From Fistulifera solaris (Eukaryota), in contig AP026123.1 in assembly GCA_030295235.1 (NCBI GenBank), positions 558,001-622,000 of the forward strand: a DNA stretch of 64,000 bases. Direction: 5' to 3'. A model generated the notes under the pieces. It saw nothing but the letters and a program-made list of their open reading frames with translations. It had not been told where the DNA came from and ran no database searches. A program made the translations under genes and the position numbers. Shown here piece by piece: positions 12,180 to 64,000 of the stretch (position 1 is its first letter; every line of letters begins with the position of its first letter).

Positions 12180-15100
12180 TTACAAGAAAGCTTTATATTG
12201 CTTCACGTCCTCCTTGGTACTAAGCTTACCCGAGGCAACAGATTGGCCGTGGGTACCGGGCATCGGCATGTTTTGCGGAATGGAGACGAGACTGGAGCCA
12301 CTAGGTGGGACGTTTGTCAATCTCGTAGCAATAGTAGATGCACCGAGCGAACCCGCATAGGAATCGGAATCATTATATCCGCGGTACCCACTCGAAGGGC
12401 CACCCGTTTTTTCGAGTTCCATCTTCAGAAGAAGATGTAGTAGACTCTTCGTCGGAATCTTCATCGGAATTGCTTCCTTCCGAGTCAGAAGCGTCGCCTT
12501 CTTTGTCGGTCGCTGTCGTAACTGTACGCGTTTTGCCCCAAGAGAAATCATCCATATTGGCGAAAGCGTAAATAGGAAGAATGAAGTAGAACACGGGAAT
12601 ACCAGCGACACAAAGACAGCGAACCACCACAGATAATCCCATCGCGAGCGAACAAGGAATGAAAGCATCTGTAGTGAGAACGAAACTGCATAGAATATCA
12701 ACACAAACGTGTCGATAAGCTCGGGCTGGGTGATGAAAAGATATGCCAGGTAACCAATGTAGATCAATGAGGCTGGGAGAATCATCGTGACGATCAAGTC
12801 CATGACGACGACCATTTTCATGGAAAACATGCAGATACCACACATTGTTTGGACCTTTAGCAGCTCGTACATGTTATGAAACGTAGAATTGATCCAGCGA
12901 CGGCGCTGTGAAAGAAGAATCCACATCGTGTGTGGCACGATCGTCCAACACATCGCTTCGGGTACGAAACTCAGTCTCATTCCTGGAAAGTACTGCAAAA
13001 GCAGTGTTGTAAGCATTCGATCCTCTCCTAGCTCAAAAGATTCTTCTCGTGAAGTGAAGGGATATCGTTGCGTGCGTAATCCGTGTATACCAAATCATGT
13101 GCGATCAAGCATTTCATATCTTCTGTCATCACACGATACCTTCAAAGAAAAAATTAGTCACGAAACGCGAAAGATTTGTAGGGTGTGCCGAGTAAACTTA
13201 CATTGTAAAACAACCGGGTAAGCATGTCACGCAACCGAAAACAGATTCGAAAGCTTTCTTCAAGTGGTGACTGGAATAGTACTCGAACACTTGAATCATG
13301 GTGACCCAAGATTGCGCCTTGTTGTCTACTTGGGTCTCTCCACAGCAAGCCAGAATCTTTTTATCCTGCTCCATGCTGTACACCATGTGGGACATCGAAT
13401 CTACATGGACCCTGGTGTCGGCATCAATTGTCATCAGGTATTCGATGTCTTTCGCGGGCATGCCTAAACTGAAAAGAGCTTTCACGAGAGCCATGTCAAG
13501 CTCACTAGGTTCGCGGTTGTAATGAATGCGATTGAACATGCCAGCCAGAACCAGCTGCGAGTCACGCTTCCCTCGATTACCAGGACGACCGCTAGATTGC
13601 TCTTCTGGGCCGCCACGCTTTACAACCACAACATACTTCAGCGACAATTCAACTTCCTGGACTTCTTTTTCGTAAACTCCAGCGTAAACACTTGCATAGT
13701 TGTCACGTCGACGTCCAAGAGATCGATAATGATGGGTTTCGTCGTCTTCATTTATTTCGAAACCAAGAATACGAGCGCAGATCTCGGGCGTACTGTACTT
13801 TTCACCGCTTCCAGTAATAACACCGTCCGCGACCACGCACACCAATTTGTTCTCCTCGGGGTAAGTTGTGTGGATCACGGAATCAAGAGTCTTACGCAAC
13901 TCGCCATCACCTTCATTGTAGCAAGGGACCATCACCATGACCGCCGCTTGCAAATCGTCCTCCGCAAAGCTTCGGTGAGATCTGCGGAACAAAAAAAGAC
14001 CAGAGAATGAGAAGAAAGACGCGATTTTTTCTCCGAGAACGACAACTCAAGCTGGATCTTACCTGCATAAGTAAACAAAGGAGCACAAAACCTGCGAGTC
14101 AAAAAGATCAAGACGGGAACGTGTCAGTCGCGATTATGGCGTGAGAAAAGCTATGTCCCACAAACGCATTTTTCTTCTCACCTGCACCGCAAGGAATCCT
14201 GTGATGAAGAATAGGAAGAAGTACCTGATAGAGGGGAAAAGAAAGAAGGCGAACGTTAGATGGTGGAAGAATGAGTCATATTTTTGTCGGCTTGGCTCAA
14301 TTGGGCCGTGCCAAGACTCTCCGAAGAGAATCCGGCACCATAGACCCGTCTAGACGCTTCTTGAATTCACATGCAGTTGGACTTACATTAATACACCAAT
14401 GGAATTGCACGCCGGATCGTAGCGGTCGTCCACAACTGCCTCGAAGAAGAGCTGATCCAAACAGCTGGGTGGAAAGGGGTTAGATTGGCGTTCATGTCGT
14501 GACAACGTCATCTGTCCGAGACTTACTATAAGTAATCGTCCGTGTCAAAGAGATCATAATAGATCGCAGTAGCGTCCCTGTTCAACTGGATCATGATCAG
14601 CTGGTGTAAATCCGCATAAAGATAAGCGTTGGGGTGATCGAGGCTCTCCGAGATGGTGTTCGTCTTGTTGTCCCAAAGATCGCTAACGTACTGCGTCACA
14701 TTGTAAATCGTATTCTTGATTCGAATGTATTGCATCCCATTTTGACCAAGCTCCCATTGTGGAATGACCAATTGTCCGGCCACGTCGTCTTTGAACTGTG
14801 CTTTGACGGCGTCGATGCCGACGATCTGATCGTGACAAGGAATTCCGGTAAGCAAATCGAGTTCCGTCAACTGCGTGCAGGTAGATGTATCATGCGTGGC
14901 CAAATACTCGTTCTTGGTCGTATTCAAGCAGAACGCGGGAAGTCGAGCCGGTGCTACACGGGGAAACAGGCGACTAGCGTCATTTCCCAGAAACTGGAGA
15001 ATTCCATCCTTACCACCGGGGTGGCGATCAACGTAGCCAGCCATGTCATAGATAGTTCCAAAAATTGTGATCCAAGCTTCTCCTTGTTGCTTCCAAATCT

Positions 15101-16057
15101 CCGACTGAGTGTACTTGTAACTTTCTTTGCAGAAATAGAGGGGTAAAAAGCCGATTCCTCCTACGGTGATGGCCGACATTAAAATCGCAATCATGCAAAT
15201 GGTCACTTTCTCACTGCGAGAATAAAATGAACATGTTAGTAACTGATGCCGCAAAACAGGTAGCAAACAAGACGAATGCCGCAAGCAACAAAAGTCGAAT
15301 TCAAAGACAAGGACCAGAATTGACAAGAAACGTACCGCCACGCTTGTTTCGGACCAGCACCCTCTTTCGGAACACAAGCATCCGGTATCAAGAAAGTACA
15401 GATAAAAGCAAGCGATCGCCAAGCCTGCGATCCAGGAGGACTTTCGGGACGCTTGTAATCTTGCAAAGGCGGCTCAAATCCGTTTTTGGCCCGCTTTGAA
15501 TTTTTGGAGGCCGCCGAACGCGCACTTCTCGCACTGCGAATACTGTGCACCGATTTCGAGCTGGTACTGCGTCCACTGCGATTCGATCGATTGCTTCGTA
15601 CACTGCGATCTTCGTGACTACCGACCGAAGTGTCGTCGGCGGCAGCTTCGCCGGGTGCGACCGACAATCCGTGTCGATACTCGTCGTACAATGCAGCATC
15701 GCCATCGCGAGGAGGTCCAGCGTATCCGTCATAGGGAATGGGCATTTCCTCGGGGTAGCGAGGAGGCGGGTAATTTCCATGAGGATATGCGCCAGGAGGA
15801 ATGTATCCGCTACCCAGACTACGTTCGTCGCGATAGCCTTGACTGTAGGCCGTCGAGTTGCCCCCATAAGAAGTTCCTGCATACGAAGTGCCCCCGTAGG
15901 ATGTTCCTGTAAACGACCCCGAGTAAGAGGCAGATCCTTGCAGCTGCTGTTTCAACATCATCACCTGTTCCGCCAGTTCCGCTTTCTCTCGAGCTAAACG
16001 TTCCGCTTCTTCGGGAGTGTAATGGCCGTTGTGGCCCATTCCGTTCTCCGGCATCAT
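12180..16057 (-). CDS. CHS: Chitin synthase A (GT2, division-2 type with cytochrome-b5-like domain), multi-intron
   Basis: VPCYNEG, NRGKRDSQ, IDADT, CVTCLPGCFTM, GEDR, SQRRRWINS, MDDFSWG; cyt-b5-like WITIFGTIYD..HPGG. Confidence 0.95.
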
Positions 16058-17074: not shown

Positions 17075-20000
17075 ATGGACACTTCGACAATCTCTTCCAC
17101 CAAGTCGGAAAAGTCGTCCTCGCACGCCTTGTCCGTGTTGGCGAAAATGATGCATGAACAAACCGAATTGGTGAATGCCATGGCGGCAGCCGCAAATCGC
17201 CCCGCACGAACTCCGGAAGAAGCCGCGCGGATCGCTCAAGAAAAAGAAGAACTCGCGCAGCGTGTCTTGTACTTGCAAGGGCAAATGGCGGCCGCGACCG
17301 AAGATGCGAGTCGCATGAGTGCCGGCGGATCGACGTTTGCGGGGGGATCTATATTACCGCCGGGATCGACGTTTACGGCGGGAAATTCGACGTATGTTGA
17401 TTCGCAAGGGGGTCGACATTCCCGGGGAGCTATGTCGACGGAAACATCCCTCCGGGGCCGTATGCGGGTCATCCGGGCTTTGCCAACGGTCCACCGGTTT
17501 ATCCAGGAGGTTATCCTCCTCATCAATTCCATGGACCAGGTCCAATTTATCCGGGGGCTATCCGGTTGGCGCAGCCTATCCTCCTAGTGTGGGTTATTCG
17601 CAGGATGGCTATTCGCAGGGTTACTCCCACGACGGTCGTTCACAAGGTTACTCGCACGATGGCCATTCATATCATTCACAGGGGTATCCACACGCCCCGT
17701 ATCCCCCGGGTGGATACGATCTACCTCCAGGGCCGCCGCCTTACAATGGGCACATGGTACCGCCCGGTCCTTACCCCATGGACCCTCACGAACGAAGTCA
17801 AGGATACGGTGGGGCTCCCTACATCAGCGGAGGTTCCTCGGTGCACAGCGGCATGGGACGCAGTGTTCGAAGCAGTCACAGTGTTCGTAGTAGTCATAGC
17901 GTCCGCAGCAGTCACAGTCGCTCAAGTCGCAGCCGCGGAGCGCATCAACCCTATGATGTCGAAGTCACGTACGGTGCCGGACCCCGGGTTCCGATTGTCG
18001 TTTCGGCCGATTTCAACGGCCCGCCCATGGGTCGTTCCGATGATGAGTATTCGATGGGCAGTCAAAGCTACCATAGTAACAGAAGCGGACGGTCGAATCG
18101 TAGTGGCCGCAGCAACAAGAGTAGTCGCAGCACTGGCGTCTCTATCAGCAGTGGTCGCAGTTCGCGCAGTGGAAAGAGTTCCAAGAAGAAAAAGAAAAAC
18201 CATGGCTTTGAACCTCCCATTGAAGAGTTTGTTCGAGAAGAGAATCCACCGGGTTCGCGTACTTGGAAAAACATTTCTCGAGCTTGCACGTTTCTGGTGC
18301 CCGATGCGTGTGTCCCGAAAGAAGGAGCTGGTCCGAAGCAGGCGTGGCGGTAAGTGATACATGCAACAAATTTTGACAGAAAAGAGTTGTCCAAGATCGA
18401 TTCTAACGTTTCCATTTGCAATTGTAGTGAGAAAATTACCATTTGCTTGATTGCCATCTTCTTTTCTTTGCTCATCGTTGGTGGTATTGGTTTTCTGCCC
18501 ATCTTTTTCTGCCGATCATCGACCAGATTTACTGCAGAGGAAGCCAAGGAGGAGAATCTGATTGGGTTACCGTGTACGGTAACCTCTATAATTTGGGTGC
18601 CTATGAAAGTCAACACCCGGGTGGTGCTGACACGATTCGCGCGTATCGCGGCGAAGACGCGAGCAACCGTTTCCCCGACTTCCGATGGGTTGGATGCCAG
18701 AGTATTGCATGAACTCGAACAAGACAGATTACATCAAGTCCAATTTCATTACTCCCGAATGCGATCTGTCGGCCAAAGAAGAGGAAGGAAATCCTTTCTG
18801 TCACGTCAGCACGGTTGGTCTGGATAGTATTCGAAACCTTTTGAGTGATTACCGGGAAGGTGTGGTAGTTGTTCCTCAGTGGGATCTTGGAAAAGAACAG
18901 CAACAATGGATTCGCATCGACAAGAACATCTACAACGTTACCCAGTACGTGGATTCGTTGCGAGATCCTGCTACAAGGAGAATCAACACCAGCCCCTCGC
19001 ATCCCAACGCACTACTGAACGAAAATCTCCATCTCGTGTTGGTCAATAAGTTGAACCAAGACGCTACGTCGGTGTTTTATGATGTTTTCCAAGACGATGC
19101 TCAGGCGTACATGGAGTAAGTGAACTGCTAGCAGTGCCGACTAACATGATGACGTCGCAATCTCACACAGCTATCCGCAGATGCTTCGACGAGCTTTTTC
19201 TACGAGGCCAGGCTGGACGATCGGTATGATCCAGCCTGCCGAAGCATCGGTGTATTCATGTACTTCTTTCTCTTCTTCATCGCTGGTCTGCTTTTTGTGC
19301 AGGTTGGCTGCTCCCTTGTCTATCTGGCTCGAAAGCATCGAATCTTCCACGAAGATGATCTCCAGGCTGCTGTTATGGTGATGGTGCCTTGCTACAACGA
19401 AGGCAACACTGAGCTAGAGAAGACGTGCAACAGTGTTCTGAGAACCAGCTACCCCGTGGAGAACAAGGTGATGTGTATTGTGGCAGATGGTGTCATTACT
19501 GGCTCAGGAGAAACATGTAGTACGCCAGAGACTTGCGCCAAGATTCTCGGATTTGAAATAGACTTTGAAAAGGACGATACTCATCATTACCGAAGTTTGG
19601 GAAAGAATCGAGACAACTTTGCCGGCGTCTACACTGGAACGTGGAAGAAGAAGGACGGCGACATCGAGCGCGAACTTAAGTACATTGTGATAGTAAAAGA
19701 GGCGGACCGGAAGAAAGAGGCTCGAGTCGCGCCGGTAACCGTGGTAAACGCGATTCTCAACTTGTTCTCACGGGCTTGTTCAATCGTATTCATTATAATC
19801 GAGAGCCTAGCGAACTCGATATTGCTTTGGTGAAGGCCTTGTTTAGTCTCGGACTACCTGCCAAGGACATTGAATACTTGATGACGATCGATGCTGATAC
19901 TAGGGTCCACGAGGAATCGATTTCTCACATGGTTTACCACCTGGAGCACGACAAGTTGGTACTAGCGTGTTGTGGTGAAACACAAGTAGATAACAAGGCT

Positions 20001-21166
20001 GCCTCTTGGGTAACAATGATCCAAGTTTTCGAATACTACTCAAGTCACCATTTAAAGAAAGCTTTCGAGTCCGTGTTCGGTTGTGTCACCTGCTTACCCG
20101 GTTGTTTCACAATGTAAGCTTTCGCGAAAGTGATTCACCAATGAAAGCACCTTTAAACCGTACTCACCATTTTTAACGACAGGTACCGTGTCTTTACAGA
20201 CGAGTTGAAATGCTTGATCTCTAACGATCAAGTGTACATTGATTACGCCCGCAATGACATCCCTTCGCTTCATGAAAAGAACTTATTCGAACTTGGTGAA
20301 GATCGAATGCTTACAACGCTTCTTCTTCAGCACTTCCCGGGCATGCGTCTAAGCTTCGTTCCGGAAGCCATGTGCTGGACCATTGTACCGCATACATTGA
20401 AGATTCTTCTGAGTCAACGTCGACGATGGATCAATTCGACTTTCCACAACATGTACGAATTGCTTAAAGTTGAGACGATGTGTGGAATTTGTTGCCTGTC
20501 CATGAAAACTGTCGTGGTCATGGATCTCATTGTCACAATGATTCTCCCAGCATCTCTTGCCTATGTTGTTTACTTGACCTATCTCTTCGTGACCGAACCT
20601 GAGTCGATTGACATGTTTATCATCATTTTCTATGGTATCACTTTTGGTATGCAGATGGTGTCGTTCCTAATCAGATCCAGGTGGGATTATCTTTGGTGGT
20701 TCTTTGTTTTCACTTTCGTGGGTATTCCGGTCTTCTACTTTCTACTTCCAATTTACGCCTTCACAAACATGGACGACTTTTCCTGGGGAAAAACTCGTAC
20801 TGTTGCTGGCGGAGATGAAGGAAAACAGAAGTCAGGGGGGATGGAAAATCTAAGAGATTTGACTCGAAAGCTGACTTGTTACCGGAAGAAGCGGTATCGA
20901 AACGGCAAGGAGGATCAGTGTCTGGTACATCGCAGTCAAAAAAGCTCAGCAGATCAACGCGTGATTCGCAAACTGGTTCTACTCGAGGACCAAAAGGGGA
21001 TGCATCTATTGCTTCTGGGACGAACTCCGCAGTTTCTGGGGGACCAAGTGGCGCACCTTCAGTAATATCTGGGCTAACAGGGTTCACCGACGGATCCGGA
21101 TTCGTTGGATCTTCATCGGTGAAAGAATCCAAAGAAAAGTTGCAAGAATGCAAAGTGGAGCTTTGA
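17075..21166 (+). CDS. CHS: Chitin synthase B, paralog of CHS-A, divergently transcribed
   Basis: Same motif set (VPCYNEG, IDADT, LGEDR, QRRRW, MDDFSWG, WVTVYGNLY..HPGG); introns after AWR, YME and CFTM; several 1-bp frameshifts. Confidence 0.95.
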
Positions 21167-39535: not shown

Positions 39536-40510
39536 CTAGTCATTGTTACTACTATTTGCATTGTTCTTTCTTCTTCGTTTCGAACTTTCCAACAAAAACG
39601 CGGGGGCACTTGCTTCATCTCTTCCTTTCCGCTTGTTCGCTCGCACGAGTGAATCGGACGGATCGCTGCCGTCTACCTTTTGAGCAGGTGAATCTCCGTT
39701 ACTGCTCTTTGCACTTTTGGCATCCGCGGCTCGTGCTGCGCTGCTCGTCGATTCTGTTTTGTGCACACGAAAGCCGAAAACGCGAGGCACGTAAGTTGTC
39801 GGTATCGGTAATGGATCTGGAGATAAATTGTTGAACGTCATAAGAAACAAGTGCGGGAACGTAGTGCCGAAGGCGGCTCCATCAACGCCAGATGTGTTTC
39901 CCGTCCGACTGCTCCGGATGGGTGGTGGATGATAGACTTGTGAGCATTTCGGACAGTATATTTTAACGGTATCCACGCCTAGGTCGTCCTTGAGACCGAC
40001 CGGAAGAACTGGTTGACCACCGCATTGTACTAATGGACAAGTTCCAAAGTCTTTGGCCACGTACTAAAAGTAGAGATGAAGTGAGTGATAATTGACATGT
40101 ATTAGATGTTGACAAAAGCATGAAACCTACCTTCGAATACATCGCATCTAGACCATGGGCTGTTATTACGTAACGCGCATGAATGAGTGAATAGAGTGTG
40201 CACGCAGATTGTGTAAGGTGACTGTCATCGGAATCATCGGGTCCAATGCGGTCCAAAATGAGATCCAAGCAATCAGAAAAGTTCGATACACAGGTCCGCA
40301 GGCCGTAAAGATTAAAACCATCTTCAATGTAAGATCTCTCGACTTCGCAAAACATTTCATGCCCTTTCAGGCCACAAAACCTAAGTTGCAGAAGCCAATT
40401 CAGATGAGAACTCTTGCTTTTTGAAAAGATACGGAACGTAATAACAAAGCTTACCATTGAATCCAAGGTTCGTCATGACCTGACACTGAAGAATCTTCAT
40501 TGAATGCCAT
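39536..40510 (-). CDS. CK2B: Casein kinase II regulatory beta subunit, two introns
   Basis: [59 protein letters not shown]. Confidence 0.96.
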
Positions 40511-46781: not shown

Positions 46782-49700
46782 TTAAAACCAAATATCATCC
46801 TCTTCTTCGGGATCTTCTATCGGTGCGAGGGCCAAACCTGTCATCCAATTCTTTGCAGGGGTTACATGTTCCTCTTGTCGGCCTAAGCTGAATGTATTCA
46901 TACTCAGTGATTTCGACATCGTGGGGGCACCAAGAACTTCACCATCGGAAAGTGAACGCTCGCCCACCGATGTCATCTTGGGTAAGGAAGCCAAATCTAG
47001 GGCGGAGTGGAAACGGTTGCCTCTTGTCGAGACCTTCACTAAACCTTCTAGCAATTCCAATGCCGAGTCAACGTCATTCAGGTAGCTAGCAGCTGCACTA
47101 GGTTTCTTCCCCACCGTACAGGTGAAGATATCCAAATCGGGGGAAACGTAATTGTCACAAGAAGACACATCCACCAGCTGTAAAGTGGCTGGCATCGGCA
47201 ACAGCGGCTGGTTCGGTCGTGGTCGAGCTTCGAGCACTCGCCTGCCGATTTGACGCATGACTGATAACATGGGCTCGTCACAGTGGTCGTCTCCCAACAC
47301 AAGGGCGAAATCGACCATTCCTTTTTGAGCAATGTCAGGAAAGCGCTTGATGACGCGCATGGCAAGAACACCTTTGTTAACACCCTTCGGGCGTACCTCA
47401 ACGTAACCACCCTCTTTTAGTCCTCCGTGCAACACATCTACGGGAAAGCTCCTAAGATATTTCGACAAGTGGTCTTCGAGCTCTTTCGCTTGTAGCGAAC
47501 CAAATTCAGTGTCTGCGTCACGGTACTGCCAGAGAACCTTCATCTCAGTCTCTTCAATATAACTTCCATGAGTTCTCGACGTGTATACTTCCATGATGGT
47601 GACAGCTAGAGATCGCCAAGTCCGATCGGTTTCGGGTACAAGTGTTTCCCAACGTCTCTTTGACGACGTCTTAGGTGTCGGCCATGAAATGAACATACCA
47701 TGCTCGGCAGCCAAGCCAAGATTAGGAATGTCACCAAGCGTCTTGGTGAGAGAATGACGCTCTTTCCACTCACGACGAAAACTGTGTTTCTCTTGTCCTC
47801 GCAAAGACCTCGTAGCGCATCTATCATTCGAGCAGTAGGGACCGATTTTCCGTCTCTCTCTTTCACCATTTGAAATCTGGTTAGAGAATCCAACTGAAAT
47901 GTAAAGAATGCAGCATGAGAAGCGATCCATAAGGAACAGAAAGTAAAATAGAGTCCAAATAACTTACGTTGTCGTTGCTCACAATGGTTCCGCCATAATC
48001 TAGCAAGATTAATCGCGCCTTAGACTTTTTGTATGCTCGGGTGACGAGCGCTGAGTCGAGTGATGTGAAACCTGTATCCATACCAAGCAAGCGATAATTC
48101 AAGCCTAGACCAGCCCCTGAGAACTGCACCGGATTAATGTTCTTGTGTACGCCCTTCAAGTCCAGCATTACCGCTAAAGCCCAGCGCTGCGTGGTGACGC
48201 GTGTGACGAACTCCGAAGCGATGCTCAGGCGACGAAGACGCTCTTCCTCCTGCATGTTTGCTGCTTGGAAAAATGCGCTGGCGATCTCCGATATTTTCCA
48301 CGGATTAATATGTAGTGCCCCACGCATCACACGTGTTGAACTGGAAAATTCTGAAAGAATGCAGATGCCCCGTTTACGACCGTCCGCACGTCCAAGGTCT
48401 GTCAAAGCATCTTGATGTGCGATCGTGAACTCAAGCGGAAGCAGATTCAAGCCATCGCGAATAGAAGTGACGACGCACACGTCGGCTGCTCGTAAGAGTG
48501 CCACTCGCTGTTGTAAGCGGATCTCTCGCTCATGAAGAATCTGGAGATGAACTGAGCCTGGCCACTTTTCATTGATCTTTTGCGCAAGGGCACAAGTTTC
48601 GGACTCCGTGCGATGAAAATCCTCTCCACGTTCAAATGCTTTTATTCCAACTTGGATCAAAACAATTTTACCTACCCATTCTGGGCAGCGTGTCAAGAAT
48701 CGTTCGAACCCAAGTAATTTCAACGGGATTCCCTTCAGACTCTCCAATCTGTCGACCCCGCAAAAAATGATTTTATCTGGAAACTGAGTTCGGAGACTGG
48801 ATACCCGCTCCATGGTACTTTGATGAATCAATACCTGCCTCAAGACAGGTGGCTCAATACCAGCGTGAATGCTCGTAACAGCCACATTTCGGCCAGCAGT
48901 GTCGATCGCAAGAGTGTGTCCACCTGATGCGTCAGGAATCATTCCATAATGAAGACCCAGCAGTCGACGGCACGACGTCAAGAAGTGACGAGCGTACTCA
49001 AAAGGTGAAAACCAACCTGATCTGCATTCAGCATACCTCGAAGCAAGTCCTCTCGGCACCATAGTGTTCGGAATATTTCCGATGACGGGAACGGAGTGTG
49101 AAGAAAGATTCCTACCTTTGCCATTGGGATGCGGCGGGTCAAGTAGGAAGGCAAGATTAGCAGATGGAAACCGTGCACCCAAACGAGGTCACCTTCGTGG
49201 AAGCATTGAACAACCTTCTCGGCAAACTGGCGATTGACAGCCGTGTAAGCAGCCCACAACTCTGCCTCGCGGCCACGACCGCCGTGGATAGGACCTTGTT
49301 CAACGTCATCCAAACTGTATTCGGAAAACTCATTTCCGTCAACTTCCGAGATTTTGGACGCGCCGTCACCATTGTCGTCTTCGGGGCCGTTCGAGTACAC
49401 GGACGTCACATTATGTAAAACTGGCCAAAGAACGCCTTTACAGAAGCCATTGTACATTTCACCAAATAGAATGGGGTCGACCCAAACTGGAACGCAGTTG
49501 AAAGGCAACAAACACTCTTCGACTAGCCGGCGCTCATTGCGAGGCACCCCTGCTTTCTCTTGCGTATTTCCATGCCAGCCGCGCCACTTGACAACTCCCA
49601 CGCGGGTCACGCGCAAGTGCGTTTGCATAGACAATAGCATTTCGTAATCCCATTCAGCGGACCACTTTCCGTCGTCGCTGCGATTCAAAATCACTGGCAG

Positions 49701-50640
49701 AAATGCGCTGACCACGACGAGACCGTCGGTTGAATTCAAATGCACAGCTTGTTTCGGAGCTGACTTGGATCCAGTCCCTCCACTTGAGCGGTGATGGGAA
49801 ACCGGAGCAGGTGCAAAACCCACTGCTTTTTTTGCGAGGGGCGCCTACTGGAGCACCAACACCTCCTTGGTTCGCCGAAATGCGCAGAGCAGATATTGTT
49901 AACGCTCCATCCGAGCTGTTGTGTCGTGCATGCAAGTTTTGTGCACGCTGCAACCCTTGATGTGATGGAAGACGATTGTGATCGATATTTGCGGGAGCAC
50001 CCGTGATACCGAGAACATCATTTACAGTGTAGACCTCTCGACTCTGGATGAGATGAAGTGGAACTTCGTGGACCGGTTCACCGCCTTCTGCAGGTTCAGC
50101 AGGAAAATCTGCAGCATGGGGTTGCTCAGGTCCTCCATCCGAAGGATTTTCCCAACGGTGGAAGACACCGGCACGATGAATCGCGTATCGGTAGGTAAAC
50201 TTGCTTTTTGGACGTCCCTCCGAACCGCCTTCAGCGACATCATGGGGATGTTTCGCCGAAAGAGGTAACGTGATCGGGTTAAGGGTATGATACCATGGAA
50301 AATCCGTAGGTGTCGTATGAAGAACAAACGACTGAATAGAAGGAGAGAGAGAGAATTGAGATTTCATGCTCAAAATAAAACCCTGAAAACTCTATATTGA
50401 TCCGAGACACGCAAATCATTCGCCTTTGCTGATAGTCTTGTGTCACTCGAAACACTCGACTGAATTAACAGAATTCTCGAGGATATAACAGTTCATAGAT
50501 AAATTTACCTTTCGTTGTCCTAAGCCCCCCGATGGTACGAGGAAGACCTCTTCACCATGAGACAAAGTCTCACAGCGCACCCGGAAGTTTACATGCGCCA
50601 CGGCGCCTAATTCGAAATCCGCTTTGTCGGTTGCGTTCAT
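46782..50640 (-). CDS. TPS: Trehalose-6-phosphate synthase/phosphatase fusion with N-terminal CBM20-like domain
   Basis: YNGFCKGVLWP, FLHTPFPSSEIFR, GVDRL..KG, RDGLNL; HAD motifs LLDYGGT, VSGK, AAEHG, VEVRPKGVNKG, GDDHCDE; N-terminal VNFRVRCET..GEEVFLV. Confidence 0.93.
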
Positions 50641-54132: not shown

Positions 54133-57100
54133 ATGGAAGACGAAAAAGCGAGTAACGACCGCATTGGTCACGCCGAAGTGCACTTTAACGACGAGGACGA
54201 CGACGAGGATGAAGATGAGGAAGATGAGGAAGAATCCAGTGACGAAGATGAAGACTTATCTGATGTATCTCACGAGGAAGATGCTTCGGATGATGAAGAC
54301 ATTCTGCTTTATTCTGCTGATCACTACGACGAAGACAACTTACCGGACTATGCGTGTCGTTATTGCGGTATTCACAATCCGTCCTGCGTTGCGATGTGTG
54401 TGGAGTCCAAAAGTGGTTCTGCAATTCATCGGGTACAACCGGTTGCAGCCACCTTGTTCACCACTTGGTTCGATCGCGCTCTCACCAAGTTCAGCTGCAC
54501 CCCAACAGTCCCTTGGCAGACACCGTTCTGGAATGTTATAATTGTGCTTCGAAGAACGTCTTTGTTCTTGGTTTCGTCCCCGCGAGCGCCAGTTCGGTTG
54601 TTGTCTTATTGTGCCGTGTGTGCGTCGAGACAGTGCCTGCTTTGAAAGACATGGATTGGGAACTTTCACAGTGGCATCCGGTGTTGCAGGATCGACAATT
54701 TCTTCCGTGGTTATTATCGGTGCCATCGGAAAAGCTCCAGTTGCGTGCACGGGATATTTCGCAAGCTCAAATGACAAGGTTGGAGGAGTTGTGGAAAACG
54801 AATCCAGATGCGCGTTATGCGGATTTGAATCGCCCGGAAATAACGGAAGAACAGGATTTACCTTCCGTGCTGCGTGTGTACGATGATGGATATCATTACC
54901 AAAACATCCTTGCGCCGCTTGTACAGCTCGAAGGTGATTACGACAGGCAAATGAAAGAAAGTTTGACGGAAGAGAGTATATCTATTCGCTGGGACAAGTC
55001 GTTGGCGGGGAAACACGTGGCCACGTTTTCTTTCCATAGGTTGCAAGCGGAACAGTCGAGGATTGTGATTGGTGACGAACTACGGATCAAACTAGGACAG
55101 GGTTCGCAGTTCTTGTATGGACGAGCATGGGAGGGAGTTGGATATGTCAAGAGTATCATTGATGGTGAAGTCGAACTCGAACTACGTAACGTCTCTGTCC
55201 CTGAGAGTATTACGGATGATTACGTCGTGGAATACGTTTGGAAAAGCACGTCGTATGATCGTATGCAGAACGCTTTGAAAACGTTTGCGATCGATGACAC
55301 TTCGGTCACAGGATATATCTACCACAAGCTTCTCGGACATGCGGTTGAAGAACAGCGAATCGCTACCGCGAAAATACCAGCAACCGAAGCAGAATTCCAT
55401 GTTCCGGGCTTGCCTCCTTTGAACGAGTCGCAATTGGAAGCGGTCAGCACAGTCTTGCAGCGCCCCCTCAGTTTAATTCAAGGCCCCCCAGGTACAGGCA
55501 AAACTGTTACTAGTGCAACCCTTGTTTACCATCTGACGCGACAGAATATGGGTCAAGTGCTTGTGACAGCTCCTAGCAATGTTGCCGTCGATCAACTTAC
55601 TGAAAAGATTGCCGCTACTGGGCTCCGTGTTGTACGTCTTGCTTCAAAAACCCGTGAGCAGACGTCTTCCACAATCGATCATTTGTGTCTGCACGTCATG
55701 ACTCCTTTGGCTGCTGGTGATGAGTTTCAAAAATTGCAACGTCTGAAGGATGAGATCGGCGATCTCTCCGAACGGGATCAGCGCAAGTACCGGGCTCTAC
55801 GCAATCGTACTGAGAAAGAAATCCTTCAAGCAGCTGACGTGATCTGTTGTACGTGTGTTGGAGCTGGTGACCCGCGATTGAAGAACTTTCGTTTCCGCCA
55901 AGTGCTGATCGACGAGGCAACCCAAGCCATTGAAGCAGAAGCTTTGATTCCAATTGCCATGGGAGCAAAGCAAGTAGTTTTCGTTGGCGACCACTGCCAG
56001 CTAGGACCTGTCGTCATGTGCAAAGCAGCGGCAAAGGCGGGCTTGACGCAAAGTCTATTTGAGCGTCTTGTTCTGATTGGGACGCGCCCGATTCGTTTGC
56101 AAGTGCAATACCGAATGCATCCTGCCCTTTCTGAGTTCCCTTCCAATATGTTTTATGAAGGCAGTTTGCAGAATGGAGTGACGGAAGCCGATAGACAGTT
56201 GTTGACTATGCCCAGCTTTTCAGGCAAGGAAGATTTCCCCTGGCCTGTTCCCGAGAAACCCATGTTCTTCTATTGCATTAATGGAATGGAAGAGATTTCA
56301 GCATCTGGTACCTCCTATTTGAACCGAACGGAGGCCTCGTACGTGGAGAGGGTTGTGACCCATTTGTTGCGAATGGGCGTGACTCCCGCACAGATCGGTG
56401 TTATTACGCCATACGATGGACAGAAGAAGTATCTTTCTGATTACATGCGCCGAGTTGGCGCTCTGGCGAGTTCGCTTTATGAAGCTATTGAAGTAGCTTC
56501 GGTCGACGCTTTCCAGGGCCGTGAGAAGGACTTTATTCTTGTTTCATGTGTCCGTTCTAGCGAAACACAGGGTATTGGTTTCTTATCGGATCCACGCCGT
56601 CTAAATGTTGCGCTTACGAGAGCTCGTTTGGGAATAATCTTGTTCGGCAACCCTCGCGTATTGAGTAAAAACCCGCTTTGGGCTGCCTTGCTGATTCATT
56701 TTAAGGAGTACGAATGTCTTGTTGAGGGCCCTTTGACCAATCTGCAGGCAAGCTACATCACTATTTCACGCCCGAAGCGCAACCCGGCTAGTGATTCTCG
56801 TTACGCTTTTACTGCGCTAGCAAGAGGCGGTTGGGATGGACGTTGGGAAGACCGACGAGACCGCCCGAATGAGGCCCCCTGCCTTTAAGCGCCGTGGACG
56901 CAGCAAACAATCGGACTCGAGATTCGACCCTCGGTACGAATCATCTAACGGGGCTCCGGCTAACGCCAATGGATCCAGTGGGGTCTGCCCATTCCCAGCT
57001 TTGCTCCTCTGCCGAGTTACGCTGGCGGCGGTGATGATTTGAGCAGTGTAGGAGGCGACAGTGCTGTCGACTCGCAGTTTGGTGGAAGTAGGGCCAGTTT

Positions 57101-57667: not shown

Positions 57668-58136
57668 TTAGTGTTCCGAGTCGTCAGTGTGCTACCTCTA
57701 GCCTTCGTTCTTACTGCTAGAGTGCTAAACTATATTTGCCTTTATCATAATATTGAATATCCTTTAGCAGCATTCGCCATGCACTGATTGATGATGATTT
57801 GTGATAACAAGATGCCTTGGGAACAACGCATTTGTGTTTGCCCACTGATGATTAACCCTAACACTACTTTAGTGTACAAGCCACGTCACGGATGCAGCTT
57901 TTACGCGTTGGTCGCAAATTTTGCAACGGTCAAAACGAACATGAAACGAATGCGAGAACGACGATGGAGGCAGTTCGGTGAACCATTCTACCTTTTCGAC
58001 GTTGTTAATCGCTTTTTATATGCACTAATCCTGTAATTGTCGAAGCAGTGTGTGCAAAGGCCGATTGCCTTGGAATTCTGGTCCCTTTTGCTTTTCTTTT
58101 GAACATTGACCCCCCAGACGCCATCGCATCGAAATC

Positions 58137-61100
58137 ATGCTGGCAACAGAACCGACTACGCAGAGATCACGGAAATTGAAATATTTACAGCAACAGGAAC
58201 GGCGGATTTCTGCACTTTTAGACATTAGTTACGTGACGAATCGCATCGTTGCCGCTTCACAACCCATTTCGGACGAAGAACCAACCTATCGAGATCTGGG
58301 ACGGTCTACTTGTGAAGGAGAATCATTCACACAAAGCGAACAACAAAGAGACGCCTCGGAACGTGATGCAGGCACGTATCAAGAATTAGAAGATTCTGTT
58401 TCATCTGCCCGGCAAGTTTCTTATTCGAATTTTGGTGAAATCGGCAAATCAGACTTTCAGAGTCCCAATGACAACGATGATACGTCCTTGAGCTTACAAT
58501 CTGACATCCGTTCTCGCAAAACTTTTAACTCGTCAGTCAGAAACGGAAACAATCAACGAAGAAACACCCCGCATTCGCTGGCTAAATTTCTGAATAAGAA
58601 ACACGGCGAGGGCAACTACCTCTTGTTTTCATTGTGCGATGATCAAGCGGATGACTCCACATTGTTTCACCTGCGCCGTCAAATTGTACAGCTGCCTTGG
58701 AAACTGTCAAGAGACAATGCTTCGGAGCTTCCAACAGTCCCTTTGTTGCTAAATATATGCTACGCCTTTCATGCATGGCTTAACATGGAGGACATTTCGA
58801 ACGGAAACGTAGGTCACTCGTCGCTCAAGCGACCTCAACACGTGGCCGTGATTTACTGTCCCAATGGAAAGACTCGAACAGCTATTGCCATCGCTTGCTA
58901 TCTAAAATTTACTGGTCAAGTCGACAAGACTGAAGATGGTTTCTTACTTTTCCTCGAAAAGCGATGTCCGGATAGTGAGCTTTCACCGGCTACAGTGGCC
59001 AAGGCTCTCCCCGCGTCCATACGTACCTTCTTTAGAAATTTTGATTCCACGATCGAGCTCAAGCGATATATGAATCAACAACCGCTGTTACTTCGGTCAA
59101 TAGTAATGCGTGGTCTTCCCGTTGAAGAGAAACCGTGTTTGAATATTTTCAACGCCCAAGGTGACCATGTGTATTCGAGTCATCCTGACTTATTTGGAGA
59201 TATATCCGTGACGAATCCTTATGCTCAGCAAGATCGGAGCCAATGGGAGGAAGAGGAAGGCTTCTTTCCGGTCAATCAGATCTTGGACGGAGACTTCTAT
59301 TTGCTGTGTCGATTTGGAGGACATTACGCAGGCGATCTCTCTGATCCATCAAAGATCATTTTTCGTTATGCAAACACAACGGGTTTTCTCGGGGCTGGTC
59401 CTATTGACTTAAGATGTGATAGAGTTGATCTGATGCGTCGATACGCGCACCTAATTGATTGCAAGGAATTCTTATTTACTATGTCGTTTGAGGCATCTTG
59501 GAATTGCTCTACTCAGCAAGAAGCTACTTTGCTGCAGAGAGATAGTATATCTGACAATGTTCCTTGCGTGCGAAGCGGATACCAGGCTATGGAACAAGGC
59601 TGGGAAATGATTTCACGTCATCATTCTGCAAAGCCTTCGAACATCGATGTCGACCTTTTACACGCTTCCTGTGAAAGTCTGCGTGAGTGTCCTTATCATC
59701 TATCGGCTTTGGCCTTGCAGCTTAGCAACTTTGATTTGAATGGCGCTGAAAACATGCTCGTAGAAGGAAAAATGCGTATCTGGTGGAGTCCTCGGATAGC
59801 GACAGAGACTCCATCTCACCAATATCAAACTAGTAGCCACGCGCAGCCCGCAATTCGGCGAGAACATCTCGAAATACGAAACAGCATTTTAAATGTGGTA
59901 AGAGGCGTTGGGTCACTATCGACGTCGCATGGAAATGGTTCATTTCAGACAAGGGCTACGAAGCAATCCACAGGGGATATTGAAGAAGGATTCACACCTC
60001 TAATATTGTCAGATGCAGCTTCATGGTATACATCCCCATTGATGCGACCCAAGTCGGGCGATATCACGAATGCAATCGGCAATAATAAATTCATTTACCC
60101 AAAACCGGACCATCCGTCACGCCGAAAAGATCAACCTCTCATTCCCCTTTTCCACACCCGTTACCCATAAAAGAAGGTTCAAGTAGCGTACTCGACGATC
60201 CCCACAATCGCAATGCTTTTGAGATGTTGATGCTTTCAAGCTCTCCTACAATTTCCATGCATGATTTCCTTGCATTGCAGCGTTATCTCAGGGGTGAAAG
60301 TGAGCGTCTTGATTCTGATTCAGCTCAAATCAACGGTGATAGCGCAGATATCATGCAAGGTCGTGAAGGAACCAACGACCTCAACATATTACCTAGCGAG
60401 CTCCAAAATGATGATGTAGTCGACGAGAAAGGGAACGCATATTATGACGAAAACACAGTTCACACGGATGCAGAAGATATTCACTCATCGGGTCCTCCCT
60501 TGAAAGACGATGAATGTTTTACGAAATATTACAAGATGCTGAAGATGGGACTGCCGCGAGGAGCCGTTGAAAATGCGATGACTCGGGATGGCGCCGACTT
60601 GTCGCTCCTTGACTTGGATCCCGAAAAGAGTCTCGCGTCTCAGAGACCGACACAGACTGTATCCTCGGCCTCGGACCCTCCCTTGAAAGACGATGAATGT
60701 TTTACAAAATATTACAAGATGCTGAAGATGGGACTGCCGCGAGGAGCCGTTGAAAATGCGATGACTCGGGATGGCGCCGACTTGTCGCTCCTTGACTTGG
60801 ATCCCGAAAAGAGTCTCGCGTCTCAGAGACCGACACAGACTGTATCCTCGGCCTCGGACCCTCCCTTGAAAGACGATGAATGTTTTACGAAATATTACAA
60901 GGTGCTGAAGATGGGACTGCCGCGAGGAGCCGTTGAAAATGCGATGACTCGGGATGGCGCCGACTTGTCGCTCCTTGACTTGGATCCCGAAAAGAGTCTC
61001 GCGTCTCAGAGACCGACACAGACTGTATCCTCGGCCTCGGACCCTCCCTTGAAAGACGATATATGTTTTACGAAATATTACAAGATGCTGAAGATGGGAC

Positions 61101-64000
61101 TGCCGCGAGGAGCCGTTGAAAATGCGATGACTCGGGATGGCGCCGACTTGTCGCTCCTTGACTTGGATCCCGAAAAGAGTCTCGCGTCTCAGAGACCGAC
61201 ACAGACTGTATCCTCGGCCTCGGACCCTCCCTTGAAAGACGATGAATGTTTTACAAAATATTACAAGATGCTGAAGATGGGACTGCCGCGAGGAGCCGTT
61301 GAAAATGCGATGACTCGGGATGGCGCCGACTTGTCGCTCCTTGACTTGGATCCCGAAAAGAGTCTCGCGTCTCAGAGACCGACACAGACTGTATCCTCGG
61401 CCTCGGACCCTCCCTTGAAAGACGATGAATGTTTTACGAAATATTACAAGATGCTGAAGATGGGACTGCCGCGAGGAGCCGTTGAAAATGCGATGACTCG
61501 GGATGGCGCCGACTTGTCGCTCCTTGACTTGGATCCCGAAAAGAGTCTCGCGTCTCAGAGACCGACACAGACTGTATCCTCGGCCTCGGACCCTCCCTTG
61601 AAAGACGATGAATGTTTTACAAAATATTACAAGATGCTGAAGATGGGACTGCCGCGAGGAGCCGTTGAAAATGCGATGACTCGGGATGGCGCCGACTTGT
61701 CGCTCCTTGACTTGGATCCCGAAAAGAGTCTCGCGTCTCAGAGACCGACACAGACTGTATCCTCGGCCTCGGACCCTCCCTTGAAAGACGATGAATGTTT
61801 TACGAAATATTACAAGATGCTGAAGATGGGACTGCCGCGAGGAGCCGTTGAAAATGCGATGACTCGGGATGGCGCCGACTTGTCGCTCCTTGACTTGGAT
61901 CCCGAAAAGAGTCTCGCGTCTCAGAGACCGACACAGACTGTATCCTCGGCCTCGGACCCTCCCTTGAAAGACGATGAATGTTTTACGAAATATTACAAGA
62001 TGCTGAAGATGGGACTGCCGCGAGGAGCCGTTGAAAATGCGATGACTCGGGATGGCGCCGACTTGTCGCTCCTTGACTTGGATCCCGAAAAGAGTCTCGC
62101 GTCTCAGAGACCGACACAGACTGTATCCTCGGCCTCGGACCCTCCCTTGAAAGACGATGAATGTTTTACAAAATATTACAAGATGCTGAAGATGGGACTG
62201 CCGCGAGGAGCCGTTGAAAATGCGATGACTCGGGATGGCGCCGACTTGTCGCTCCTTGACTTGGATCCCGAAAAGAGTCTCGCGTCTCAGAGACCGACAC
62301 AGACTGTATCCTCGGCCTCGGACCCTCCCTTGAAAGACGATGAATGTTTTACGAAATATTACAAGATGCTGAAGATGGGACTGCCGCGAGGAGCCGTTGA
62401 AAATGCGATGACTCGGGATGGCGCCGACTTGTCGCTCCTTGACTTGGATCCCGAAAAGAGTCTCGCGTCTCAGAGACCGACACAGACTGTATCCTCGGCC
62501 TCGGACCCTCCCTTGAAAGACGATGAATGTTTTACGAAATATTACAAGATGCTGAAGATGGGACTGCCGCGAGGAGCCGTTGAAAATGCGATGACTCGGG
62601 ATGGCGCCGACTTGTCGCTCCTTGACTTGGATCCCGAAAAGAGTCTCGCGTCTCAGAGACCGACACAGACTGTATCCTCGGCCTCGGACCCTCCCTTGAA
62701 AGACGATGAATGTTTTACGAAATATTACAAGATGCTGAAGATGGGACTGCCGCGAGGAGCCGTTGAAAATGCGATGACTCGGGATGGCGCCGACTTGTCG
62801 CTCCTTGACATGGACCCAGATAGAAGCCTCATCTCTCAACTAACAAGCATCTCGAACAAAGATGTTGGGGTTCAACAAGATATTTTAGACAAGGCCGAGT
62901 TTGTTCAGCTGAAAGCCCAGGACATGGCCTCTCAGAAAGGTTCTTCTTCTCGTCTTCCTGCAGAGCCACGACAGAACGCAGCGAAAAAGAATGTGAGACG
63001 AAAAAAGATATTTTGGAATCCAATAAATCCTGGGGAATTGAGAGAGGATTCTTTGTGGTCGCTGGTGAAAGGAAAAGTTCAGATGGATAGTTTAAAATAT
63101 GATGTTCGAGAATTCGAAGATCTTTTCACCGAGTCGCCTGATACAGCAAAAGCCAAAATGATCAAAACAGAAAAGAGGGTAGAAACGAAGAAAAGCGTCC
63201 AGGTTATTGATGGGAAACGATCCATGAACGGAGGCATTATTCTTAAGCGATTAAGGATTGAGTACAAGGCACTTGCTGAGATGGTCGAATCAATGTAAGT
63301 CAAGATGATGATGGATGCTGTCGTTGAAAAGAAATCTTTCTCATGGCAACCTTTACGCCTCAGGGAAATTGGAGCCCTAGACGCTACATCGATCAAAGCG
63401 CTGAAAGAGTACCTCCCGACTGTTGACGAAAGAAACCAGCTTCAATCCTACTTAAAAGCGGCTGGTGATTCCAAGGATATACGAGAAAAGCTCTACGGTG
63501 ATCTTAGTGACTGTGAGAAGTACATGATTTGCATGATGGATATAGCTAAAGCCGATGACCACTTTGATTGCATGTTATTCCGGGTGCAATTTCGATCCAG
63601 ATTCGACGAGCTTATTGATTGCCTTAGAACGGTAGACAAAGCTTGTGATGAAGTCAGGTCTTCTGAAAAGTTTCGACAAATTATGGCAATTATACTAACC
63701 GTGGTCAATCAGATCAATACGGGCGGCGAAGGAAAGGGTCAGGCTATGGGTTTTAATCTTGAAACACTGTTGAAACTTAACGAGGTACGTCTTTGTTGTC
63801 TTGTCATTGGGCATTTTTGCAAATCTCACTTTTCTACTCAAAACAGGCGAAGGCTTTCGATAAAAAGACAAGCGTTCTTCAATATCTCATCAAAGTGGTC
63901 AAACGAAACGACGAGTCGCTAATTGAATTTCACAAAGACCTTCCACATACCAACGACTCAGTTAACATCATCTTGGATTCTCTATGTTCAGATATCAAAG
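58137..64000 (+). CDS. Formin with N-terminal PTEN-like/C2 region, 13 internal repeats and an FH2 domain (truncated by the window end; frameshift near 60150)
   Basis: LDISYVTNRIVA, YCPNGKTRT (degenerate CX5R), C2-like LDGDF..IIFR; FH2 KKIFWN, SLW, FEDLF, IDGKRSMNGGI, VNQIN, MGFNLETLLKL..KAFDKKT. Confidence 0.88.
60493..62830 (+). repeat. 13 near-identical 183-bp (61-aa) coding repeats inside the formin
   Basis: PPLKDDECFTKYYKMLKMGLPRGAVENAMTRDGADLSLLDLDP recurs every 183 nt from about 60495 to about 62690. Confidence 0.99.

Follow-up and report, generated by a model that had tools for sequence, protein, structure and literature searches.

A predicted PTEN-type formin gene of the diatom Fistulifera solaris with an array of WASHC3-like mini-domains in the place of FH1

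The 64,000-nucleotide stretch of the Fistulifera solaris genome analysed here (contig AP026123.1 of assembly GCA_030295235.1, positions 558,001 to 622,000 of the forward strand; hereafter the window) ends in a gene that, read from its sequence, encodes a diatom formin of the stramenopile PTEN type and of which the 5′ four-fifths are present; the predicted protein has ~2000 residues. Canonical FH1 units of formins are unfolded polyproline tracts that bind profilin–actin. In the predicted protein, the place of FH1 is occupied by 13 near-identical copies of a mini-domain resembling the C-terminus of the WASH complex subunit WASHC3 (CCDC53). On balance, we consider it somewhat more likely than not that the gene combines PTEN-type formin anatomy with an array that does the job of FH1.

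The array forms one tandem repeat at 60494–62814, with a period of 183 nucleotides, 12.7 copies, 99% matches and no insertions or deletions (Tandem Repeats Finder, score 4586). Upon translation it yields 13 copies of the core, 12 of them in complete 61-residue units with an identical 21-residue linker, while the 13th has an identical core followed by a diverged linker. Units 1–12 each differ from their consensus at 0–2 of 183 bases, and only two amino-acid changes distinguish the units, in units 3 and 4. The array shares an open reading frame (ORF; 60224–63298) with FH2 profile positions 3–106. An antisense ORF of 784 residues at 60485–62839 (−) was dismissed as a by-product of a repeat unit that has no stops on the opposite strand.

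The repeat ORF matched the Pfam family CCDC53 (PF10152) in 13 stretches (E 4.2e-129), the best of which covered profile positions 93–147 of 147. A single 52-residue unit was sufficient to pass the cut-off (E 3e-9, 37.9 bits against 24.6), matching positions 109–147, the last 39 of the 147. Each core of ~40 residues thus resembles the last 39–55 profile positions of WASHC3, the smallest WASH complex subunit. Unlike in WASHC3, the motif occurs 13 times rather than once and in a protein of ~2000 residues, and no ORF matched profile positions 1–92, the N-terminal two-thirds that include the coiled coil. According to the introduction of a 2026 preprint, this coiled coil serves trimerisation and entry into the WASH complex. 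Because the N-terminal coiled-coil part is missing and the motif is present in many copies, the predicted protein is not a WASHC3 orthologue, and the two share a domain. Two other Pfam hits were rejected: Zn_ribbon_Brz (E 7.4e-22 for the whole protein, with 0 stretches passing) is a summed artefact of the 13 repeats, and SLATT_4 (E 0.027) is noise.

An alignment of 53 units from 53 proteins gave the consensus PLKDDPxYxKYFKMLKMGLPxxAVxxKMxxDGxDPxxLDxDP, with a mean column identity of 53%, from which the motif is judged to be under selection. AlphaFold2 modelled the unit as a small three-helix bundle (helices 16–23, 28–38 and 42–46; mean predicted local distance difference test score (pLDDT) 80.8, predicted template-modelling score 0.58).

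That the gene encodes a formin is indicated by Pfam FH2 matches on three consecutive exons, which are collinear with full-length diatom formins. No run of three or more prolines was found in the translated exon stretches and ORFs checked, and PP pairs occur only where the repeats begin, 13 in all; the protein therefore has no FH1 in the usual sense. A previous reading of the window, made from its letters and ORF translations (the sequence-only reading), had described 13 repeat copies before FH2, a motif like the CCDC53 C-terminus and no polyproline FH1. The count is borne out by Tandem Repeats Finder, the translation and the 13 Pfam stretches, the family by the Pfam match of one unit, and the lack of FH1 by the lack of proline runs.

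As the window is written, the PTEN/C2 ORF (58137–60170, 677 residues) is in frame 0 and the repeat–FH2 ORF (60224–63298, 1024 residues) in frame 2, followed by two more plus-strand pieces, 63305–63922 and 63793–63999, before the window ends. The start at 58137 agrees with the homologues. The change of frame that separates PTEN/C2 from the repeats appears to be an artefact of assembly, the undercall of a single T. Contigs of public sequencing runs were compared with the window over 57800–60520, and an extra T behind 60147 was present in one contig of run X1, a wetland metagenome DNA run (59723–60520), and in one contig of run X2, which comes from a different study (60032–60375). Apart from this insertion, both contigs matched the window letter for letter (0 other letters, 1 gap). 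T insertions of like kind were seen in run contigs at 57918, 58085 and 58096. With four T-runs one T short within 2.7 kb, the assembly seems to undercall such runs. Five T at 60148–60151 would fuse the frame 0 and frame 2 ORFs, and we conclude that exon 1 is predicted to be one ORF of ~1720 codons. Alignments with the closest homologues (P0016, P0017 and P0019) run collinearly through the frame change at ~60150 without a gap, and residues are conserved both before and after it.

We considered the possibility that the frameshift is real, and that the locus is a pseudogene or comprises two genes, one for a PTEN/C2 protein and one for a repeat–FH2 protein starting at the ATG at 60224. The window as written does contain that ATG and a stop at 60168–60170, and no public run recorded as RNA was found for the locus to show the joining. 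However, the extra T in otherwise identical contigs from two studies, the three further T undercalls nearby, the collinearity of homologues over the junction and the presence of PTEN-like and repeat parts in one protein in 80 of 249 relatives all speak for an undercall, and make a real frameshift very improbable. An intron at this boundary was rejected as well: the only GT..AG pairs that join the frames are 14–17 nucleotides apart, which is too short, and the homologues are collinear there. No splice-like joints were present in the run contigs over 57800–60520. Thus, the earlier proposal of PTEN, repeat and FH2 parts in one protein stands if a one-base homopolymer error is accepted, with collinear homologues behind it, and fails for the assembly as it is, in which the parts are not in frame.

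In the same runs, both X1 and X2 contained two versions of 59132–59354 and of 59423–59730, one identical to the window and the other with 20–29 differences. The pairs of versions point to two diverged haplotypes or to two strains that occur together.

The FH2 domain is interrupted by two short introns. At the first, a 23-residue gap occurs in the alignments of the full-length homologues P0009, P0013 and P0014 exactly at the intron; in P0010, five aligned residues break it up. The FH2 profile position jumps from 106 to 111 across intron 1, and the stop that ends the second ORF (60224–63298) lies within it. Many ORF-called diatom homologues (P0016, P0017, P0021 and others) stop exactly at the corresponding position (63295), an indication that related diatoms share the site of this intron. 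At the second, the sequence LLKLNE/AKAFDKKTSVL is conserved straight across the intron in 8 of 8 homologues tested. FH2 is covered up to about profile position 285 of 372; the remainder of the domain and the C-terminus, together the last fifth of the protein, lie beyond the end of the window.

The head was identified by both sequence and predicted structure. Compared with PDB sequences using phmmer, residues 142–280 matched human PTEN (5bug_A, 34–150) at E 1.2e-4, among 13 matches that included Ci-VSP and TPTE2. Pfam PTEN_C2 was weak on its own (E 0.078, 13.1 bits, below the cut-off of 27.1). An AlphaFold2 model of the head, built with 28 homologues, had a mean pLDDT of 74.4, exceeding 90 over most of residues 138–556; residues 59–137 and 559–677 are predicted to be disordered. 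Foldseek returned 33 matches at E ≤ 0.001 for this model, including Ci-VSP (3v0j_B, E 4.8e-14, template-modelling (TM) score by target 0.76), PTEN (7jul, E 1.1e-13; 1d5r, E 9.5e-13, TM by target 0.70) and auxilin (3n0a, E 3.2e-13). The two-domain matches (Ci-VSP, PTEN and auxilin) covered the whole targets, with TM by target of 0.62–0.76, and C2-only chains such as 3w57_A matched too. According to the model, then, the N-terminus is a PTEN phosphatase-like domain joined to a PTEN-type C2 domain. The helical domain modelled behind C2 (ORF1 residues ~460–557) had no Pfam match.

Within the P-loop, C241 and G244 are nearly invariant among the 28 homologues. The Asp of the PTEN “FED” segment, which we take to be the general acid, is aligned with a Leu by phmmer. 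The head is probably catalytically dead, as it has no His in front of the catalytic Cys. Grunt et al. (2008; PMC2386819), in the part of that paper concerned with P-loops, describe stramenopile formins as keeping Cys and Arg without the His, and propose a loss of activity; the plant class II PTEN-like domains are described there as having no Arg, unlike the stramenopile type. The sequence-only reading had called the region plant class II-like. The PTEN/C2 unit and the layout agree with this, while the retained Arg places the P-loop with the stramenopile type as described in that part of Grunt et al. (2008). Given the altered P-loop and the known properties of PTEN-type C2 units, the head would most likely act as an inactive targeting module that places the enzyme on a phosphoinositide membrane.

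The same layout is widespread among stramenopiles. When the FH2 start was used to search among long proteins, 14 of 14 relatives carried both PF10152 and PF02181, among them proteins of Nitzschia inconspicua, Nitzschia sp. Nitz4, Seminavis robusta and Mayamaea pseudoterrestris. A search of 1.84 billion cluster representatives with one unit gave 1208 proteins at E ≤ 0.001 (582 at ≤1e-10 and 90 at ≤1e-30); the best 150 of these 1208 had 2–11 matched stretches each. With a profile built from the 53 units, 709 of the 8000 candidates scored were matched, and CCDC53 and FH2 are both on record in 99 of the best 120 of these 709. The statement of the sequence-only reading that CCDC53-like motifs are annotated in some stramenopile formins was thus correct, for all 14 long relatives and for these 99. 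The members include diatoms (Thalassiosira exigua, Cyclotella cryptica, Cylindrotheca fusiformis and a Bacillariaceae metagenome-assembled genome), the pelagophyte Aureococcus, the brown algae Ectocarpus and Scytosiphon, the xanthophyte Tribonema minus, the pinguiophyte Pinguiococcus, the labyrinthulids Hondaea and Mucochytrium, and the oomycetes Phytophthora, Pythium, Lagenidium and Nothophytophthora. No named member outside the stramenopiles was present among the matches listed; most matches are unnamed, and the range is a lower bound.

Architectures were tallied for 249 proteins that hold repeats. FH2 was also present in 177 and a PTEN-like head in 80. In 142 of the 177, no more than 30 residues separate the end of the last repeat from the FH2 match. 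A gap of more than 80 residues was found in 32, in which the FH2 match begins only at query position 59–180; in the gaps examined, the FH2 start motif followed soon after the last repeat. The 72 proteins with no FH2 match include many short fragments and a few on long contigs (P0043 and P0046). Phytophthora ramorum P0218 has Drf_GBD, Drf_FH3, 8 repeats and FH2, so the array occupies the FH1 place in Diaphanous-type formins too. As judged from these domain matches, the beads-on-a-string layout immediately before FH2, with a period of ~60 residues, recurs behind at least three kinds of head (PTEN/C2, Diaphanous GBD/FH3, or neither of these). (One PTEN-head repeat-formin, Pinguiococcus pyrenoidosus P0022, has a UBA domain at residues 383–412, upstream of its 9 repeats.)

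Only 17 of the 177 proteins with both repeats and FH2 have a stretch of at least three consecutive prolines in the interval from the last repeat to FH2. In Tribonema minus P0135, four proline runs of the PPPLPG type separate the 4 repeats from FH2. In the partial Scytosiphon promiscuus P0181, 8 repeats are followed by a tail of 31% proline with six proline runs and a sub-threshold Drf_FH1 match. Several Pythium-type oomycete proteins have a single run of 5–9 prolines immediately before FH2, and the other long-gap oomycete proteins examined, several of them named Phytophthora, had no proline run there. Most simply read, these sequences point to an early gain of the array, upstream of FH1, within the stramenopiles and to a subsequent decay of FH1 in several lineages. 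Such decay would be tolerated if the array overlaps FH1 in function.

The unit period is ~57–75 residues from diatoms to oomycetes. The relatives examined have 2–11 units, which are only 60–86% identical among themselves; the 13 of the window are the largest number seen. The near-identity of the 13 units would reflect a very recent expansion or homogenisation in the lineage. Could the array be a neutral expansion of this kind, or an assembly miscount of what is normally a 5–10-unit array, so that both number and near-identity have no functional meaning? The 0–2 differences per 183 bases in units 1–12, the smaller and more diverged arrays of the relatives and the proven homopolymer errors of the assembly would all fit. 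On the other hand, unit-specific variants scattered over units 2, 3, 4, 5, 7 and 10 indicate that the array was resolved rather than collapsed, the frame is maintained throughout, and the argument touches the copy number only, not the nature of the array. We therefore regard this explanation as improbable.

How might the array serve FH2? The sequences establish its position directly before FH2, its multiplicity, its flexible linkers, the conservation of its cores, the lack of polyproline and its occurrence with three head architectures. We suggest that it is a flexible, multivalent tether that would capture a ligand and hand it to the barbed end held by FH2. The most likely ligand would be the actin monomer, contacted directly or by way of a carrier that is not the polyproline–profilin pair. 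Taken by itself, this capture mechanism, with actin monomers or a monomer carrier as ligand, is a reasonable possibility that falls short of being probable. The WASHC3 motif sits on the flexible tail of a subunit of an actin-nucleation-promoting complex, which fits an actin-related ligand and is not evidence for one. No actin or profilin was found among the 36 ORFs of the window. A passage in PMC11420354, crediting Aumeier 2015, states that many diatoms have neither profilin nor the Arp2/3 complex; where profilin is absent, as stated there, a polyproline FH1 would have no partner.

Several observations weigh against a role of the array in place of FH1. Because oomycetes carry the same arrays, the arrays are only weakly linked to a loss of profilin. 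In Tribonema and Scytosiphon the repeats coexist with an FH1, and the two may do different jobs, and some repeat proteins have no FH2. In the CCDC53 papers examined, which treat the coiled coil or give interactor lists only, no stated function of the WASHC3 C-terminus was found. Nor does the fold give a functional clue, because searches of the PDB by sequence and by fold gave no convincing relative. One repeat had no match among PDB sequences at E ≤ 10, and the 53-unit profile had 3, all chance-like (E 0.62–1.3). Foldseek of the unit model against the PDB gave nothing at E ≤ 0.001, with fragments of MARK1 and ATP-citrate lyase in the top rows, and a wide structural search with VIA-align reached a best Z of 3.8, for generic small helical pieces. 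A UBA-like or headpiece-like fold, an idea taken from the sequence pattern, had no such match in either fold search. Thus, no solved structure appears to contain the repeat motif. The copy number of 13 is known from the assembly alone. Finally, given that no RNA-recorded run was found, the joining of PTEN, repeat and FH2 parts is read from the ORF and the homologues; run X2, which like X3 and X6 is RNA by surmise only, was set aside as transcript evidence, as it covers the upstream intergenic stretch too and has the same two-version bubbles as the DNA run X1.

Some of these points would be expected if the array were instead a docking or regulatory platform for a partner other than actin (the partner of the WASHC3 C-terminus, a membrane-traffic factor or an intramolecular autoinhibitory contact) that sets where or when the formin works. 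The mini-domain is predicted to be a folded three-helix bundle, unlike known actin-monomer motifs and without a match to a solved actin binder. The array exists side by side with a normal FH1 in P0135 and P0181, and 21 of the best 120 profile matches have no recorded FH2, some of them on contigs of tens of kb (P0043 and P0046), so that the module is not strictly tied to FH2. However, many of the FH2-less proteins are short fragments, and the position of the array directly before FH2 in 177 of 249 proteins, with three head architectures, points to a coupling to FH2 itself. Moreover, the loss of polyproline in most of these formins calls for a substitute if elongation is to be fast. We consider such a platform, the main alternative, rather unlikely, if worth keeping in mind, and favour an array that takes over from FH1.

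A broader and more speculative version of the capture model would be that the three-helix mini-domain at the C-terminus of WASHC3/CCDC53 is itself a binder of actin monomers or of their carrier, that arrays of it were placed upstream of FH1 in an early stramenopile, and that several lineages, including diatoms, then lost the polyproline–profilin route and elongate filaments independently of profilin. Drawn from sequence comparison, this scenario as a whole is doubtful. If true, it would assign a function to the unexplained WASHC3 tail in animals and amoebae.

Like the canonical FH1 of Bni1 and mDia, the array is directly N-terminal to FH2 and consists of several units with flexible linkers, in a number that varies between paralogues and species. 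Unlike canonical FH1, it consists of predicted folded helical mini-domains without proline runs. Besides FH1, the formins mDia1, FMNL3 and INF2 have a monomer-recruiting module of their own in their WH2-like or DAD tails. These motifs are single short unfolded helices C-terminal to FH2, whereas the window protein has a large N-terminal array of predicted folded domains. With plant class II formins, the window protein shares the order of PTEN-like head, spacer and FH2. Plant class II formins have a polyproline FH1. By the criterion of Grunt et al. (2008), they combine a PTEN-like domain lacking the catalytic Arg with an FH2 of the class II clade; the window protein keeps this Arg.

FH1–profilin delivery is regarded as the general route to fast formin elongation. 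A large, old and conserved group of formins, in diatoms, brown algae and oomycete plant pathogens, that has arrays in place of FH1 would point to a second solution. The layout would also be a first functional handle on the conserved, unexplained C-terminus of WASHC3.

Stramenopile PTEN-formins themselves have been known since 2008, and their layout is written as PTEN(-C2)-FH1-FH2 in the passages that deal with it (PMC2386819; PMC5628938, Pruyne 2017). The window protein agrees with them in its PTEN phosphatase-like and C2 head, the P-loop with Cys and Arg and no His, the FH2 on the C-terminal side and the distribution over diatoms and oomycetes. It differs from the layout given in those passages in that 13 WASHC3-like mini-domains and no polyproline occupy the FH1 place. 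The domains of stramenopile formins in Table 1 of Grunt 2008 (PMC2386819) are FH1, GBD/FH3, PH, C2, PTEN, ANK and WW, with no CCDC53-like module in that table. The automatic domain pair is already in public databases, for example under the Joint Genome Institute (JGI) name “Formin Homology 2 Domain/Subunit CCDC53 of WASH complex”. No description of a formin layout with CCDC53/WASHC3 repeats was found in searches of the open-access literature and bioRxiv; the one paper retrieved for PF10152 has it in a domain-count table only. The gene is thus one more member of an annotated family, and the folded WASHC3-like array in place of FH1 is apparently undescribed. If many diatoms have no profilin and no Arp2/3 complex, as the passage in PMC11420354 has it, the repeat-formins would be prime candidates for the actin structures of valve morphogenesis and raphe gliding.

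Table 1. Features of the predicted formin gene, in window coordinates.
Feature	Position	Strand	Remarks
Exon 1	58137..63294	+	single frame if T-run 60148–60151 is five T, not four
PTEN-type phosphatase-like domain (predicted)	58197..59066	+	ORF1 residues ~21–58 and 138–310; low-confidence insert 59–137
P-loop YCPNGKTR	58854..58877	+	C-x5-R Cys and Arg kept; Tyr replaces PTEN's His before Cys (alignment to PTEN)
C2 domain, PTEN type (predicted)	59070..59501	+	ORF1 residues ~312–455; beta sandwich 317–452 in model
Conserved helical domain after C2 (predicted)	59514..59807	+	ORF1 residues ~460–557; mostly pLDDT > 90; columns conserved in homologue alignment
T homopolymer	60148..60151	+	window one base short, giving apparent frameshift and stop 60168–60170; extra T in public sequencing runs
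Repeat array	60494..62814	+	13 units of 61 residues; core ~40 residues, like WASHC3/CCDC53 C-terminus, then ~21-residue Ser/Thr/Gln/Pro-rich linker
Linker, last repeat core to FH2 start	62815..62974	+	~53 residues, no polyproline
FH2 domain, first part	62975..63294	+	Pfam FH2 profile 3–106, E 2.1e-9, ORF2 residues 918–1023
Intron 1	63295..63363	+	69 nucleotides, GTAAGT...AG, phase 2, in-frame stop
Exon 2	63364..63784	+	FH2 profile positions 111–237, E 7.1e-27
Intron 2	63785..63846	+	62 nucleotides, GTACGT...AG, phase 0
Exon 3	63847..64000	+	FH2 profile positions ~235–285, E 8e-5; continues beyond window

Since the assembly seems to undercall homopolymers, other split ORFs in the window may be artefacts. 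The genes for COG4 (2187–4762, +), trehalose-phosphate synthase/phosphatase (46785–49844, −) and casein kinase II beta (39539–40472, −) each appear as two or three overlapping or adjacent ORF pieces, which could be due to introns or to the same homopolymer errors. Two divergent chitin synthase (Chitin_synth_2) genes lie ~5 kb apart at 12183–14046 (−) and 19153–21062 (+), the first of which adjoins an ORF with a cytochrome-b5 domain (14529–15473, −). A complete UPF1-type RNA helicase gene (54321–56888, +), with UPF1_Zn_bind, a 1B domain and AAA_11/AAA_12, ends ~1.2 kb upstream of the formin start.

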